A DNA stretch of 64,000 nt from Arcobacteraceae bacterium (GCA_041694355.1 JASMTK010000012.1:11201-75200); one strand, 5' to 3'; positions 2-5,961 are shown, counted from the first letter of the stretch. Notes: generated from the sequence alone by a model not told the origin. Made by a program: numbers and translations.

Positions 2-454
2 CTAATCTTCTATGCTTCTCCTTTTCATGATTTGGGAAAAGTTGGAATTGAAGATAAGATTCTTTTAAAACCTGGTAAGCTAGATAATGATGAATATACA
101 ATTATGAAAGAGCATGCAAATATTGGATATGAGATTTTAAAAGATTCACAAAGTGAATACTTAAAAGCTGGTGCAATTATCGCTAAAGATCATCACGAAA
201 AGTATAATGGCCTTGGCTATCCTGAGGGTAAAAAAGGTGAAGACATCCATATATTTGGAAGAATTGTAGCTATTGTTGATGTGTTTGATGCACTAACATC
301 ATCAAGACCTTATAAAAGAGCTTGGACTTTTGAAGAGGCTGTAAATTTACTTATCGAAGAAAAAGGTAAACATTTTGATCCTAAACTAATTGATTTGTTT
401 GTTGAAAACCTTGATGAAGTAAAAGAGATATATAAATCATTTGATTTAGATTAA
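2..454 (+). CDS. HD-GYP domain c-di-GMP phosphodiesterase, 5'-truncated by the window edge
   Basis: Frame is open from base 2 (LIFYASPFHDLGKVG), so the HD motif lies upstream of the ORF-track start; HHEKYNGLGYPEG and DVFDAL motifs. Confidence 0.88.
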   Translation, partial: LIFYASPFHDLGKVGIEDKILLKPGKLDNDEYTIMKEHANIGYEILKDSQSEYLKAGAIIAKDHHEKYNGLGYPEGKKGEDIHIFGRIVAIVDVFDALTSSRPYKRAWTFEEAVNLLIEEKGKHFDPKLIDLFVENLDEVKEIYKSFDLD

Positions 455-467
455 GGAAAACTATATT

Positions 468-3400
468 ATGAAAAAACTTATTTCACCTTTTTTAAACCCA
501 TATATTGGTCCAATAATTGTAATAACTTTAGTTGTTGCTTATCTAGTAATCTTTGAAATTCCAAAATATTCAGAAAAAAATAAAAAAGAGTCTATGACTC
601 AAAAAGCTATTAGTGTTGTTGAAAATCTAAAGAAGACAAGAAGTTACTATACTACTTATGTAATAAACGATATTAAGAAACAAACAGATATTAGAATCAA
701 TTATGACCATGAAGAAAGAAAAGATACTATACCTTTACCTGCTACATTAGTTCATGACTTAAGTACAATTCTTCCTGAAAATGATATGAAAATTAAAATG
801 TTTAGTAACTATCCTTTCCCTAATAGAAAAGACAGAGTTTTAGATGAATTTGAAAAAGAGTCTTTAGCTTGGCTTGTAAATAATCCAGATGATATTTATA
901 CTAAAACAATTGAAAAAAACAAAGATGAAAAAATCTTTAAAGTAGCAGTTGCAGATGTATTTTACAACAACGGATGTGTTCAGTGTCACAATACAAGAGC
1001 AGATACTCCAAAAGATGACTGGGAACTTGGTGATGTAAGAGGGATAATTGAAGTTACTATTCCTTACTCAAAAGAGTTTATTTTATCAAGTAGACAAACT
1101 CTTTATTTAATAGCTATCTTAATAATTTTCATTCTAGCACTTGGGATTCACTATAGTGTTATTTCATTTATAAGACAAAAAGATTATAAAAGAAATAAAA
1201 AAATATTAGAAGAAGAAGTAGCAAATAGGACAAAAACACTAAAAGATACAAATAAACTACTAAACGAATACAAAAAAGCAGTTGATACTAGTGCTATTGT
1301 TTCAAAAACAAATAAAGATGGATTAATAACATACGTAAATGATGAATTTATAAAAATTTCACAATACACAAGAAATGAACTATTAAGAAGAAGTCATAAT
1401 ATAGTAAGACACCCTGATATGAGTGATGAATTTTTCAAAGACTTATGGGATACAATAAACAATAAAAAGATTTGGAAAGGACAAATAAAAAATAGAGCTA
1501 AAGATGGTTCAGCTTATTATGTGGCCTCTACAATAGTTCCTATTTTAAACTCTGATGATGAGATAGAAGAGTTTTTAGCTATTAGATTAGATATTACTGA
1601 TGTTATAAATTCACAAATCAAAGCACAAAGAGCAGATGAAGCAAAATCCACATTCTTAGCTAATATTAGTCATGAGATTAGAACTCCACTAAATGCAATT
1701 ATTGGTTTTTCTGATATCTTATGTAAAACAAAGCATTTGGATACACAAACTAAAAAACAAGCGAATATTATTCAGACAAGTGCAAACTCTCTACTTGGAA
1801 TAATTAATGATATTTTAGATGTATCAAAAATAGAAAGTGGAAACTTTGAAATAGCAATTGAGAATACAGATATATACTATATTAGTGAACATGTTGTTGA
1901 ATTATTCTCTAAGAGAGCTATAGAGAAGCATATAAAATTAGTATTTGATTTAGATAATAAAATACCTATGTGTTTAAAAACAGATGGAGTTAGAGTAAGA
2001 CAAGTTTTATCAAATCTATTAAGTAATGCAATTAAATTTACTCCCGAACATGGAAAGATAGAGCTTAATATAAATCAAGTTAACAAAGATGAAAATACTA
2101 CAACCATTAGATTTGAGGTTAAAGATACAGGTATTGGAATACCAAAAGAGAAGCTAGATAATGTCTTTAAACCTTTTGTACAAGTTGATCATAAATCAAA
2201 TAGACAATTTGAGGGAACTGGACTTGGACTTAGTATTAGTTCTCACATAATAGACTCACTTGGTTCAAAAATAAATATTGAAAGTCAAGTTGGTACAGGT
2301 ACTAAGTTTTGGTTTGATTTGACACTTGAAATTTGTGATGATGCTATACATACAAATAAAGAGTACTCTAGTCAAATAAGTTTTAAATTTGATGATATCA
2401 ATAGTGATTTATACCATTATGCAAAAAGATATTTAAACATATTTGGAACAATAAACAACGAAAATGAAAATAAAAACATCATAAAAGTTCTTACTAGTAA
2501 TGATTTAAAAAACAGTAAACTTCAAAAGCTAAGAGAAGAAGAACCAAATACTTTAAAACTTATTCTTTTAGAGTACGAAGAGTCTTTAGATGAACTAACG
2601 CTTTATGAAAATGAGCAAGGTTTAGCATTGCCATTTTATGCTTCAAAAATAAATGATGCCCTTCAAGAGCTACTAAATATAAAAAATGAAGCATTACAAA
2701 TAGAAGAAAATATTGACTTTGATTCTTTTGAAGGAAGAGTGTTAGTAGCAGAAGACAATCCTGCGAATCAAGAACTTATATCTTTTATTCTTAAAAATTT
2801 TGAAGTTGATTTTGATTTAGCAAGCAATGGAAAAGAGGCCTTTGACTTATATAGAAACAACTCTTATGATATGATTCTAATGGATATAAATATGCCAATT
2901 ATGGATGGAATTGAAGCTTTTAATTCTATTAGAAAATTTGAGAGTGAAAATACTATCTCTTCAACTCCTATCATTGCTTTAACAGCAAATGCGATTAAAG
3001 GTGATAAAGAGAAGTTCTTAAAACTTGGTATGAATGACTATTTAAGCAAACCTATAAATACTGATGAATTAAAAAGTATATTTAATAAGTTTTTAACTGC
3101 TAGTAACAAAGATATAAAAAGTGATAAAACAAAAGAAGAAATAACTAAACAAGCAGAAGTAAATACATCTAATGAAGTAATTTCAACAGATGCGGTTGCT
3201 AAAAAACTTGGTATATCTTCAACAGTTGCTAATATGATTATTCAGAAGTTCAAAGATGAAATCATAAAAGATTTAGATGAACTAAATTCATTTATTGAAA
3301 CTAACGATATCAAAAATAGAGTAGATAAAGCTCATTATATTAAGAACTCATGTTTAAATATGGCCTTAGATGATATTTGTGAGCTACTTCAATCACTTGA

Positions 3401-3482
3401 AGACTCAAGCTTAAGCAAAGATGACTCAAAGGAAGTATCTACAAAAATATATGCTAATATAGAAAATATGATAAAGGAGTAA
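468..3482 (+). CDS. Membrane hybrid histidine kinase: periplasmic c-heme (Tll0287/DUF3365-like) domain, PAS, HisKA, HATPase, REC, Hpt
   Basis: Two TM segments flank CVQCH (975-989); H-box SHEIRT; N, G1 and G2 boxes; REC LMDINMP; C-terminal AHYIKNS Hpt-like motif. Confidence 0.88.
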   Translation: MKKLISPFLNPYIGPIIVITLVVAYLVIFEIPKYSEKNKKESMTQKAISVVENLKKTRSYYTTYVINDIKKQTDIRINYDHEERKDTIPLPATLVHDLSTILPENDMKIKMFSNYPFPNRKDRVLDEFEKESLAWLVNNPDDIYTKTIEKNKDEKIFKVAVADVFYNNGCVQCHNTRADTPKDDWELGDVRGIIEVTIPYSKEFILSSRQTLYLIAILIIFILALGIHYSVISFIRQKDYKRNKKILEEEVANRTKTLKDTNKLLNEYKKAVDTSAIVSKTNKDGLITYVNDEFIKISQYTRNELLRRSHNIVRHPDMSDEFFKDLWDTINNKKIWKGQIKNRAKDGSAYYVASTIVPILNSDDEIEEFLAIRLDITDVINSQIKAQRADEAKSTFLANISHEIRTPLNAIIGFSDILCKTKHLDTQTKKQANIIQTSANSLLGIINDILDVSKIESGNFEIAIENTDIYYISEHVVELFSKRAIEKHIKLVFDLDNKIPMCLKTDGVRVRQVLSNLLSNAIKFTPEHGKIELNINQVNKDENTTTIRFEVKDTGIGIPKEKLDNVFKPFVQVDHKSNRQFEGTGLGLSISSHIIDSLGSKINIESQVGTGTKFWFDLTLEICDDAIHTNKEYSSQISFKFDDINSDLYHYAKRYLNIFGTINNENENKNIIKVLTSNDLKNSKLQKLREEEPNTLKLILLEYEESLDELTLYENEQGLALPFYASKINDALQELLNIKNEALQIEENIDFDSFEGRVLVAEDNPANQELISFILKNFEVDFDLASNGKEAFDLYRNNSYDMILMDINMPIMDGIEAFNSIRKFESENTISSTPIIALTANAIKGDKEKFLKLGMNDYLSKPINTDELKSIFNKFLTASNKDIKSDKTKEEITKQAEVNTSNEVISTDAVAKKLGISSTVANMIIQKFKDEIIKDLDELNSFIETNDIKNRVDKAHYIKNSCLNMALDDICELLQSLEDSSLSKDDSKEVSTKIYANIENMIKE

Positions 3483-3484
3483 TT

Positions 3485-4024
3485 ATGAGAGGTGTGATTT
3501 TTACAGAGATGATTGAGTTTGTTGAGGATGCACTTGGATTTGAAGTTGCAGATAAAATGATAGAAAAAGCACACTTAGATAATCACGGTGCTTTTTCTCA
3601 AGGAGGGAATTACCCTTTTGACCAAATGGTAAAAATGCTAACAGCTTTATCTGAAATAACAAAAAAAGAACCAAATGAGCTTCTTTATATATTTGGTAGA
3701 CATCTATTTTCTATTTTGGTAAAACTATATGGAAAAGATATAAAAAGTGCTGGGAATGCTTTAGACTTTATTGATAGTGTTGAAGACTATGTACACGTTG
3801 AAGTTAAAAAACTTTATCCTGATGCTGATTTACCAACATTTAAAACAATAGAAAAAAGTGATGATATTTTGATATTACACTATAAATCAGAGAAAAAACT
3901 TGAAGCCTTCGCCCATGGTTTAATTGAAGCTTGTGGAGAATATTTCAATGAACCTTTTAATGTAGAATACAAAACTATAAAAGATACTCCCCATACAGTT
4001 GAGTTTAAAATAGAAAGAAAATAG
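3485..4024 (+). CDS. Stand-alone H-NOX (heme NO/O2-binding) protein
   Basis: MRGVIFTE start; proximal His in VHVEVKKLYPDADLP; YxSxR-type motif read as YKSEK; 179 aa; SD AAGGAG. Confidence 0.88.
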   Translation: MRGVIFTEMIEFVEDALGFEVADKMIEKAHLDNHGAFSQGGNYPFDQMVKMLTALSEITKKEPNELLYIFGRHLFSILVKLYGKDIKSAGNALDFIDSVEDYVHVEVKKLYPDADLPTFKTIEKSDDILILHYKSEKKLEAFAHGLIEACGEYFNEPFNVEYKTIKDTPHTVEFKIERK

Positions 4025-4026
4025 CA

Positions 4027-5352
4027 ATGTCTGAAGAACATAATCCCTGGAAAAAAAGATTTGAAAGAGAAAGATTAGCTAGAAAAAATAGTGAAAGACT
4101 CTTAGAGGAAAAAAGCTTTGAACTATGGCAAGCGAATCAAGAACTTGAAAAACAAGTTCAACAACGTACAGAATCTTTAAAACAAGCATTATTGGAAACT
4201 CAAAAAGCAAATAGAGCAAAATCTGACTTTTTAGCAAATATGAGTAATGAGATTAGAACACCCTTAAACGGTATAATTGGTTTTTCAAAATATTTAAATG
4301 ATTCAAATCACTTAAACAATCAAGATAAAAAATATGCCTCTATTATTGAAACTAGTGCAAACTCATTACTTTGTATCATAAACGATATCTTAGACTTTTC
4401 AAAAATTGAAAGTGGTAACTTTCAAATATCTATTGATGAGGGTAATATTAAGAAAATAGCAAAAGAAACAATTGAACTATTTTCAACTAAAGCAAGAGAA
4501 AAAGAGATAATATTAGATCTTAAAATAGATGATGAAATTCCAGATAATATAAATAGTGACTTGCTAAGATTGAAACAGGTTATATCAAATCTAATATCAA
4601 ATGCTATAAAATTCACAAATGAAAATGGTAATGTAAAAGTAAAGCTTAGTTTGCAAAATAAAGATGATAGTTACTGTAAAATCAAAGTAGTAGTAGAAGA
4701 TAACGGTATAGGTATACCAAAAGATAAACTTGATTCAATACTAAATCCTTTTATTCAATTAGAAAACATTTCAAATAAGCAGCACACAGGTACAGGTTTA
4801 GGACTTAGTATATGTTCTAATATATTAAAACTTATGCACTCAGAACTACAAGTAGAGAGTAAAGAAAATATTGGTACCTCTTTTAGTTTTGAACTTGAAT
4901 GTAGTTATAACAAAAATAGTGAAATAGAAAAAGTAGAAAAAACTTCATTTGTAAAAGAAAGTAAAAAAGAGTTTTCAGAAAAAATCTTGTTAGCAGAAGA
5001 TAATTTGATTAACCAAGAACTTATGAAAGCTGTACTTCAAAGTTTAAAAGTGCAGTTTGAAATTGTCTCTAATGGTAAAGAGTGTTTAGAAGAGTACTGT
5101 AAAAACCATAAGTATTATAAACTAATTTTAATGGACATAAATATGCCTATTATGGATGGATTAGATGCTTTAAAGCAGATAAGAGCTTTTGAAAAAAAAG
5201 AGAGAATAGAAAGCATAAATATAATTGCATTGACAGCAAATGCTATTAAAGGTGACGAAGAAAAATATTTAAATCAAGGTATGAATGGATACTTAAGTAA
5301 ACCTATTAACACAGAAAAATTAAAAACTATTTTAGATAAATTTTTGAAATAA
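4027..5352 (+). CDS. Cytoplasmic H-NOX-associated hybrid kinase-like protein with H-box His replaced by Asn
   Basis: N-terminal RERLARKNSERLLEEK coiled coil; H-box reads SNEIRT (AAT at 4246-4248); HATPase boxes and REC LMDINMP intact. Confidence 0.85.
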   Translation: MSEEHNPWKKRFERERLARKNSERLLEEKSFELWQANQELEKQVQQRTESLKQALLETQKANRAKSDFLANMSNEIRTPLNGIIGFSKYLNDSNHLNNQDKKYASIIETSANSLLCIINDILDFSKIESGNFQISIDEGNIKKIAKETIELFSTKAREKEIILDLKIDDEIPDNINSDLLRLKQVISNLISNAIKFTNENGNVKVKLSLQNKDDSYCKIKVVVEDNGIGIPKDKLDSILNPFIQLENISNKQHTGTGLGLSICSNILKLMHSELQVESKENIGTSFSFELECSYNKNSEIEKVEKTSFVKESKKEFSEKILLAEDNLINQELMKAVLQSLKVQFEIVSNGKECLEEYCKNHKYYKLILMDINMPIMDGLDALKQIRAFEKKERIESINIIALTANAIKGDEEKYLNQGMNGYLSKPINTEKLKTILDKFLK

Positions 5353-5451: not shown

Positions 5452-5961
5452 ATGTCAAAAATTGGTATTTTAGTTGCAAGTGCAAATAACAATAGAAAAT
5501 TAGGTAACAAATTAAAAGATATTGCAAATGAGTTAGGTCATGAAGTTGAATTAATAAATTTAGTTGATTTAGATCTACCTCTTTACAGTACAGTAGAAGA
5601 AGAGAAAAATGGAATCCCTGAAACTGTTTTAGATCTTACAAATCATATTTTAGATTTAAAAGCCTTTATAATTGTTGCTCCTGAGTATAATGGTGTTATG
5701 CCTCCTGTATTAAATAACGCAATGGCTTGGACATCAAGAAGTACAGAGCACTGGAGAGATGCATTTAATGAAAAAGTTGTAGCACTAGCTACACACAGTG
5801 GTGGTGGCGGAGCTAAGGGGCTTCAAGCTATGAGAATTATGTATCAACACTTAGGTGCAAATATTTTAGCAAGAGAAATACTAACAACATATCAAAAACC
5901 GTTAGATGAAGATACTGCTAAGAATATAATTAAGCAACTAGCTAAGTTATCAGAAGTTTAG
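5452..5961 (+). CDS. NADPH-dependent FMN reductase family flavoprotein
   Basis: APEYNGVMPPVLNNA and ATHSGGGG motifs. Confidence 0.85.
   Translation: MSKIGILVASANNNRKLGNKLKDIANELGHEVELINLVDLDLPLYSTVEEEKNGIPETVLDLTNHILDLKAFIIVAPEYNGVMPPVLNNAMAWTSRSTEHWRDAFNEKVVALATHSGGGGAKGLQAMRIMYQHLGANILAREILTTYQKPLDEDTAKNIIKQLAKLSEV

Follow-up and report, generated by a model that had tools for sequence, protein, structure and literature searches.

In Gammaproteobacteria, much work has gone into circuits that link H-NOX heme sensors through histidine kinases to cyclic di-GMP (c-di-GMP), but what feeds their "second kinase" is not generally known. In Pseudoalteromonas atlantica, HahK, HptB and HarR form a relay of H-NOX hybrid kinase, histidine phosphotransfer (Hpt) protein and c-di-GMP enzyme. 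HqsK-LuxU of Vibrio harveyi and V. parahaemolyticus is a relay of H-NOX hybrid kinase with Hpt (PMC6759604). The Hno network of Shewanella oneidensis and Vibrio cholerae comprises H-NOX, HnoK, HnoS, HnoB (REC-EAL), HnoC and HnoD, the last being a degenerate REC-HD-GYP protein (Plate & Marletta 2012, via PMC6335343). A different type of heme sensor is represented by sCache_heme receptors such as the Cache_heme-HAMP protein of Pseudomonas azotoformans and GSU0582/GSU0935 of Geobacter (10.64898/2026.02.01.703092, 10.64898/2026.05.25.727664), and heme-Cache sensors were recognised as nitric oxide (NO) sensors only in 2026. Here we describe a locus in which such a sensor shares a putative operon with H-NOX and provides the second kinase with an identifiable input. 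It lies at the left end of a 64,000-nucleotide (nt) stretch of DNA from an Arcobacteraceae bacterium (GCA_041694355.1, JASMTK010000012.1), hereafter called the window.

The window corresponds to C12:11201-75200 of the draft assembly, where C12 denotes the contig; coordinates without contig prefix are window positions. Four reading frames follow each other on the plus strand, separated by 13, 2 and 2 nt, and the first of them is open at its 5' end, being cut by the window edge. No plus-strand terminator-like site was found inside the four-gene block by a scan for such sites, and the genes are presumably co-transcribed. On balance, we consider it probable that they represent a multi-kinase phosphorelay locus, in which a core of REC-HD-GYP regulator and heme-Cache kinase (HK1) is joined by a cassette of H-NOX and another kinase (HK2), and that this genome carries two recent lesions in it. 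Features of the locus are as follows (REC, receiver domain; TM, transmembrane segment).

2-454, plus strand: REC-HD-GYP response regulator, C-terminal 150 codons (Pfam HD_5, 1e-28, and HD; contig translation)
468-3482, plus strand: HK1, 1004-amino-acid (aa) membrane hybrid histidine kinase with TM1, sCache_heme, TM2, PAS, HisKA, HATPase, REC and Hpt (Pfam, hydropathy, motifs)
579-1064, plus strand: sCache_heme / Tll0287-like domain of HK1, putatively periplasmic, residues 38-199 (PF11845)
975-989, plus strand: CVQCH, c-type heme attachment motif of HK1, residues 170-174 (motif, alignments)
1671-1673, plus strand: CAT codon of His402, phospho-acceptor of HK1 in SHEIRTPLN (motif position)
2883-2885, plus strand: Asp806, receiver aspartate of HK1 in LMDINMP (motif position)
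3237-3473, plus strand: Hpt domain of HK1, with predicted phospho-His His956 at 3333-3335 in AHYIKN (Pfam Hpt)
3485-4024, plus strand: H-NOX protein, 179 aa (Pfam HNOB, PF07700; PDB matches; residue mapping on 1U4H)
4027-5352, plus strand: HK2, cytoplasmic hybrid kinase of 441 aa that lacks Hpt and consists of coiled-coil, HisKA, HATPase and REC (Pfam, motifs)
4246-4248, plus strand: AAT codon of Asn74 of HK2, at the phospho-accepting His position in SNEIRTPLN (homologue alignment)

The locus resembles the Hno network in that H-NOX stands beside its own kinase, a second kinase with different input would feed the same regulators, the expected output is c-di-GMP hydrolysis and the set includes a REC-HD-GYP protein. 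Unlike in the Hno network, both kinases are hybrid with REC, a Hpt step is added, all genes are in one operon and REC-EAL is missing from it. Moreover, the sensor of the second kinase is identified here as a c-heme Cache domain of likely periplasmic location, and the HD-GYP protein of relatives retains every catalytic motif, in contrast to the degenerate HnoD. With HahK/HptB/HarR and HqsK-LuxU the locus shares a sensor-less cytoplasmic hybrid kinase just downstream of H-NOX that needs a separate Hpt. In those systems, however, the Hpt is a stand-alone protein and the output is a GGDEF/EAL protein or LuxO, while here the only Hpt of the operon is the C-terminus of the other sensor kinase and the output is HD-GYP.

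HK1 is like the sCache_heme receptors in having the domain between two TM helices on the presumed periplasmic side, with CxxCH on a short inserted helix, no axial Cys and fusion to a signalling module. It differs in its output, which is PAS-hybrid kinase-Hpt instead of HAMP/Ser-Thr kinase or methyl-accepting chemotaxis protein, and in its genetic linkage to a cytoplasmic b-heme NO sensor, a linkage absent from the searched passages of either preprint. The core unit in Arcobacteraceae, a hybrid HisKA-HATPase-REC-Hpt kinase beside REC-HD-GYP, is the same as that of RpfC/RpfG in Xanthomonas. Here, heme-Cache takes the place of the membrane region sensing diffusible signal factor, a PAS domain and the H-NOX/kinase cassette are extra, and relatives have a third kinase, a HAMP kinase of about 1250 aa. 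The literature search returned no paper linking H-NOX with Arcobacter and one incidental match for Epsilonproteobacteria. The architecture is real, conserved in a small group and undescribed in the literature searched, and it is a variant of the H-NOX/c-di-GMP phosphorelays.

The first of the two lesions affects the REC-HD-GYP gene. The full gene spans C12:10608-11654, with its start 593 nt upstream of the window, and the HD motif (HDLGK), the GYP motif (GLGYPEG) and the REC Asp (ILIDYMMP) are all present. Its reading frame is interrupted by TAA at C12:11103-11105 (96 nt before the window begins), which splits the gene into a 165-codon REC part and a HD-GYP part. This stop occupies the invariant Glu position of AEY(K/R)DxETxxH, filled by Glu in 6/6 aligned orthologues (346-380 aa), so the gene has no uninterrupted frame including the metal-binding Glu of the N-terminal loop. 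The replaced residue corresponds to E185 of PmGH, which has a role in the third metal site of HD-GYP (10.1101/2021.11.05.467447). The next ATG after the stop, at C12:11160, is preceded by no obvious Shine-Dalgarno sequence, and a product started there would miss the Glu as well as the metal-binding His that follows it. With GAA changed to TAA, the regulator is predicted to end after 165 residues and to retain REC only; the fragments predicted from this gene are of 165 and 164 aa.

The second lesion is found in HK2. Its Pfam families are HisKA, HATPase_c and Response_reg, and neither a TM segment nor a sensor domain was found in it by hydropathy and Pfam. Across the 80 H-NOX loci of public genomes that are closest to this one, H-NOX is almost always followed directly by a gene for a HisKA-HATPase(-REC) kinase. 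Since this downstream kinase is nearly constant, H-NOX/HK2 can be taken as a standard sensor-kinase pair, and HK2 presumably receives its input from H-NOX in trans. The AAT codon of Asn74 is one base from CAT. His occupies the H-box position in 118 of the 119 HK2 homologues with recognisable H-box, HK2 of this genome being the sole exception; an 87%-identical relative, located on a metagenome contig with identical gene order, keeps it too. H74N is the only unique change of HK2 at columns otherwise invariant among 29 orthologues, and general decay of HK2 was rejected on this ground. Since the rest of the protein shows no extra loss of invariant residues, the change appears to be recent.

HK2 has intact ATP-binding boxes (N, G1 and G2) and an intact Asp370 in REC, and it is 46% identical to HK1 over HisKA-HATPase. 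Such features, together with the isolated character of H74N, could be expected if the altered HK2 were alive as a pseudokinase, acting as a phosphatase gated by H-NOX, as a sink for phosphate by way of its REC, or as the catalytic partner that phosphorylates the HK1 His in mixed dimers; as HD-GYP is truncated, signalling would be rerouted to other regulators. However, all other 118 homologues keep the His, including the closely related protein with identical gene order, and no conserved lineage without His is apparent, so that a single recent substitution is more simply explained as loss. We therefore regard a pseudokinase as very unlikely and prefer to see two probable, recent loss-of-function point mutations in this copy of the operon. 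This calls for caution in annotation, as a pipeline would call four signalling genes here, two of which carry lesions of catalytic residues.

In this genome, HK1 and H-NOX themselves look intact. Pfam assigns Tll0287-like (PF11845, 63.2 bits, cut-off 24.1), PAS, HisKA, HATPase_c, Response_reg and Hpt (26.8 bits, cut-off 24.6) families to HK1; its ATP-binding boxes (NLLSNAIKF, DTGIG and GTGLGL) and all relay residues are present. Hydrophobic segments at residues ~12-31 and ~211-233 bracket the domain bearing CVQCH, with Lys/Arg on the N-terminal side of the first segment and beyond the second one. As these charges would mark the cytoplasmic sides of the segments, periplasmic placement of the c-heme domain is a sensible reading. 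The only unique change of HK1 at otherwise invariant columns is Arg at residue 307 in PAS (1386-1388), where 25/25 orthologues have Gly (ELLRRSHNI versus ELIGKxHNI). One such change is within the orthologue range (0-14 unique changes), and general decay of HK1 was rejected for this reason.

The two Cys and the His of CxxCH are invariant in 68 aligned homologues of the HK1 sensor. Outside this motif, Cys occurs in none of 119 homologues of the domain (0/119) and is likewise missing from the domain of HK1 itself. An AlphaFold2 model of the heme domain was built on the 68 homologues (mean predicted local distance difference test score, pLDDT, of 93.1), and it places CxxCH on a short helix (149-157) between beta strands 136-145 and 171-180. 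This modelled placement matches the published sCache_heme arrangement, where a short helix bearing CxxCH is inserted between beta strands three and four (10.64898/2026.02.01.703092). According to the same preprint, DUF3365/Tll0287 (sCache_heme) members fused to signalling modules bind NO tightly and do not have the axial Cys found in Tll0287. The HK1 sensor, being fused to PAS-HK-REC-Hpt and devoid of the axial Cys, would by its sequence fall into the signalling "Cluster 2". The genome has two genes for CcsBA-like cytochrome c synthases, and the domain is presumably loaded with heme. Apart from HK1, two further proteins with Tll0287-like CxxCH periplasmic domains are encoded (C131:34126-34512, minus strand, and C109:46727-47062; frames of 746 and 736 aa), suggesting that heme-Cache sensing is used more than once.

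The H-NOX protein scores 131.4 bits with Pfam HNOB (cut-off 25.5), and the solved H-NOX structures 6BDE, 6BDD and 6OCV match it at full length with E ~1e-34. Residues were mapped by alignment to Tt H-NOX, whose sequence is identical to 1U4H. The proximal His104 (3794-3796) and Pro117 align with H102 and P115 of 1U4H and are invariant in the clade. In the distal pocket, Met9, Leu74 and Phe142 are found in place of W9, N74 and Y140 of Tt H-NOX. These three residues are the O2-stabilising triad, and a non-polar pocket is typical of NO-selective H-NOX. The protein is thus predicted to be of the NO-selective type.

The original prediction had pictured four co-oriented genes 2-13 nt apart, with two heme inputs, one from either side of the membrane, two hybrid kinases, one Hpt and a HD-GYP output, all joined in a dual-compartment sensing phosphorelay. 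Frames and gaps are indeed as it described them, and the CxxCH domain between TMs and the HNOB match support the two heme inputs at the sequence level. The list of parts is borne out by Pfam, and the architecture is conserved in the genus. However, the HD-GYP gene has a premature stop and HK2 is without its phospho-acceptor His; because of these two lesions, the relay as drawn is probably not running in this genome.

H-NOX is rare in Campylobacterota. It was found in 7/41 relatives and in five of 401 sampled genomes of the phylum, belonging to two of 63 genera; the locus is an uncommon instance of H-NOX signalling in this phylum. Campylobacterota H-NOX sequences form one clade (Shimodaira-Hasegawa-like approximate likelihood ratio test, SH-aLRT, 98), inside which the Halarcobacter group sits on a long branch. 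In Arcobacteraceae, heme-Cache kinases of the HK1 type are far commoner than H-NOX. They belong to a conserved core locus, in which a gene for 248/249 aa is joined by REC-HD-GYP and HK1. The HAMP hybrid kinase of ~1250 aa often comes next; it is absent from the operon of this genome. The core occurs without H-NOX in Poseidonibacter lekithochrous, Arcobacter cloacae, strain DY0563 and the metagenome-assembled genome (MAG) with the closest HK1; the upstream SelA-SelB-BCCT-helicase synteny of this MAG is common to the genome studied here.

Where the H-NOX/HK2 pair is present, it takes various positions. It directly follows HK1 in this genome, in H. ebronensis and in the ENA contig. In Malaciobacter and YIC-310 it lies between HK1 and the HAMP kinase, and HK2 there has 407 aa and no REC; in A. 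roscoffensis and YIC-464 it comes after the HAMP kinase, with HK2 of ~548 aa carrying its own Hpt. Pairing of H-NOX with a DUF3365 kinase, for which a synteny search had been suggested, is therefore conserved in the genus. The notion of one "H-NOX operon" as the ancestral unit is not supported, since the core is found without H-NOX: the unit appears to be an H-NOX/kinase cassette, variably present, that was inserted into an older REC-HD-GYP/heme-Cache-kinase locus. Related genera with and without the cassette offer a natural comparison for the way in which periplasmic and cytoplasmic NO signals are combined.

Occurrence of sCache_heme near H-NOX was screened in 81 neighbourhoods (this genome and the 80 closest loci), 10 kb either side. 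The profile, made from 68 sequences, was sensitive enough to detect a distant paralogue in this genome. Positive neighbourhoods were three of the 81, all in the Halarcobacter group (this genome, H. ebronensis and YIC-310), and a single-sequence phmmer search gave the same three loci; in YIC-464 the screen is limited by the contig, which ends inside HK1. The H-NOX clusters of Sulfurimonas and Sulfuricurvum also have REC-HD-GYP upstream, but their kinases are different and a HDOD protein is included.

Two further observations concern these related loci. The ~1250-aa HAMP-HisKA-HATPase-REC(-Hpt) kinase stands beside the core in most relatives (loci L099:9004-12780, L100:8646-12290, L101:10787-14566 and L016:1857-5636), and its N-terminal region of ~540 aa matches no Pfam family. 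In Sulfurimonas MAGs, the H-NOX cluster (L048:3952-11366 and L057:2102-9522; L030 and L032 are similar) comprises REC-HD-GYP, REC, a PAS kinase, a 777-aa kinase, HDOD, H-NOX and a short kinase. The N-terminus of the 777-aa kinase is weakly protoglobin-like (E = 1.5e-4, below cut-off), and the cluster may be another multi-heme-sensor arrangement.

In relatives, where it looks intact, the Arcobacteraceae locus with its cassette is probably a NO-responsive, multi-input relay to a c-di-GMP phosphodiesterase. REC-HD-GYP, the output of the core, would be a phosphodiesterase of the Glu-bearing, trinuclear-metal type. HK1, by means of its periplasmic c-heme, and HK2, through H-NOX, would each autophosphorylate on His and transfer the phosphate to their own REC. 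From there it would pass to Hpt, that of HK1 where HK2 has none, and then to REC of the HD-GYP enzyme, which amounts to a many-to-one relay. Heme-ligand status in periplasm and cytoplasm, with NO as the most likely ligand, would thus jointly set c-di-GMP hydrolysis. By analogy with characterised H-NOX systems, NO-bound H-NOX may inhibit HK2, and RpfG provides a precedent for activation of HD-GYP by phosphorylation. NO would then raise c-di-GMP, as could be expected from the Shewanella, Vibrio and Pseudoalteromonas systems (covered in part by PMC6335343). In this genome, the dedicated output would be truncated and HK2 would not autophosphorylate, leaving the H-NOX branch most likely off, whereas HK1 may still signal to another regulator via its own Hpt. 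For this strain, loss of function or rewiring is accordingly predicted for both the H-NOX branch and the dedicated output.

Several observations weigh against the relay outlined above. In the heme-propionate motif of H-NOX, Tyr133-x-Ser135-x-Lys137, Lys replaces Arg in 7/7 Arcobacteraceae sequences, while 6BDE, 6OCV and 1U4H all have Arg in Y-x-S-x-R; the exchange appears to be conservative. Foldseek comparison of the modelled heme domain with PDB gave no significant match (best E = 0.037). Its top 50 contained weak PAS/Cache sensor domains only and did not recover 5B82, and it is not used as support. PDB sequence search with the heme domain or with a 13-sequence profile likewise gave no meaningful match. 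Stand-alone sCache_heme members act as redox proteins, according to the corresponding preprint (10.64898/2026.02.01.703092). Three other Hpt domains are encoded in the genome, one of them by a stand-alone open frame of 96 codons, and HD_5 has ten further matches, so that partners outside the operon are possible. Finally, the evidence for both lesions comes from one draft assembly, which is in 143 contigs.

The redox role of stand-alone members and the surplus of Hpt and HD-GYP genes would also suit a different arrangement, in which the two kinases serve separate pathways side by side: HK1 would sense periplasmic redox, oxygen or another non-NO ligand, and H-NOX/HK2 would signal elsewhere. Presence of the core without H-NOX in several genera and the varying position of the cassette are in line with this arrangement, as is the fact that no nitrite reductase of the NirS type (cytochrome cd1) turned up in this genome. 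On the contrary, the genes are co-directional and only 2 nt apart, HK2 has REC but no Hpt, and the Hpt of HK1 is the only one encoded in the operon. Further, the cassette is repeatedly kept inside this locus and not elsewhere, and REC-HD-GYP genes accompany H-NOX in Sulfurimonas and Sulfuricurvum as well. Separate pathways thus seem unlikely, and a relay shared by both kinases is preferred.

Dependence of both lesions on one assembly raises the question whether the operon is in fact fully functional and the lesions are consensus errors. Both are single-base changes from G:C to T:A (GAA to TAA in REC-HD-GYP, CAT to AAT in HK2), a class produced by oxidative DNA damage in library preparation. 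The species is known from one assembly only, HK2 is a singleton cluster and the sequence around the lesions shows no other decay, all of which would fit such errors. However, two independent errors would have to hit exactly the catalytic Glu and the phospho-His among ~5,900 bases. Only one of the 11 HD_5 matches in the genome contains a stop, the TAA of the operon's REC-HD-GYP, and the other ten are free of internal stops. The genome has 173 in-frame junctions of two long open frames. At most of these junctions, judged by eye, Met follows within a few codons past the stop, as in ordinary adjacent genes; nonsense errors are therefore not rife in the assembly. Errors at both sites are considered unlikely, and genuine, recent mutations remain the favoured explanation. 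Stop-codon reassignment was also considered and rejected, since the other in-frame junctions resemble ordinary gene boundaries.

The contamination estimate for the genome is 3.24%. One of the junctions, a TGA in a formate-dehydrogenase-like frame (C105:3871; …HQARI*HSSTVAG…), looks like a selenocysteine codon. Some open-frame junctions are shared by pairs of contigs, identical in C6/C122 and near-identical in C115/C116, where each contig also has a HD-GYP match. Such pairs suggest duplicated contigs, repeats or strain heterogeneity.

A bolder extension of the shared relay would have the locus of intact relatives act as a two-compartment NO detector, in which a common Hpt, that of HK1, and a trinuclear HD-GYP enzyme allow NO to be compared or summed across the membrane, with H74N turning HK2 of this genome into a NO-gated phosphatase or phosphate sink. 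We regard this combination as quite unlikely.

Surroundings of the locus were inspected as well. On the contig, genes for tRNA-Phe and tRNA-Leu precede the REC-HD-GYP gene; Rfam search of the region upstream of the operon detected these two tRNAs only and no riboswitch. Promoter-like scanning of this AT-rich DNA was uninformative, with counts not exceeding (<=) the shuffled expectation. SelA and SelB genes are located at the contig start, upstream of the window (C12:159-3334). Downstream, 99 nt behind HK2, lies a gene of the NADPH-dependent FMN reductase family (5452-5961). It was rejected as a member of the operon, since relatives have other genes or strands in between. A FMN reductase gene is also found near the locus in Poseidonibacter, Malaciobacter, A. 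roscoffensis and the ENA contig, with varying strand and adjacency.

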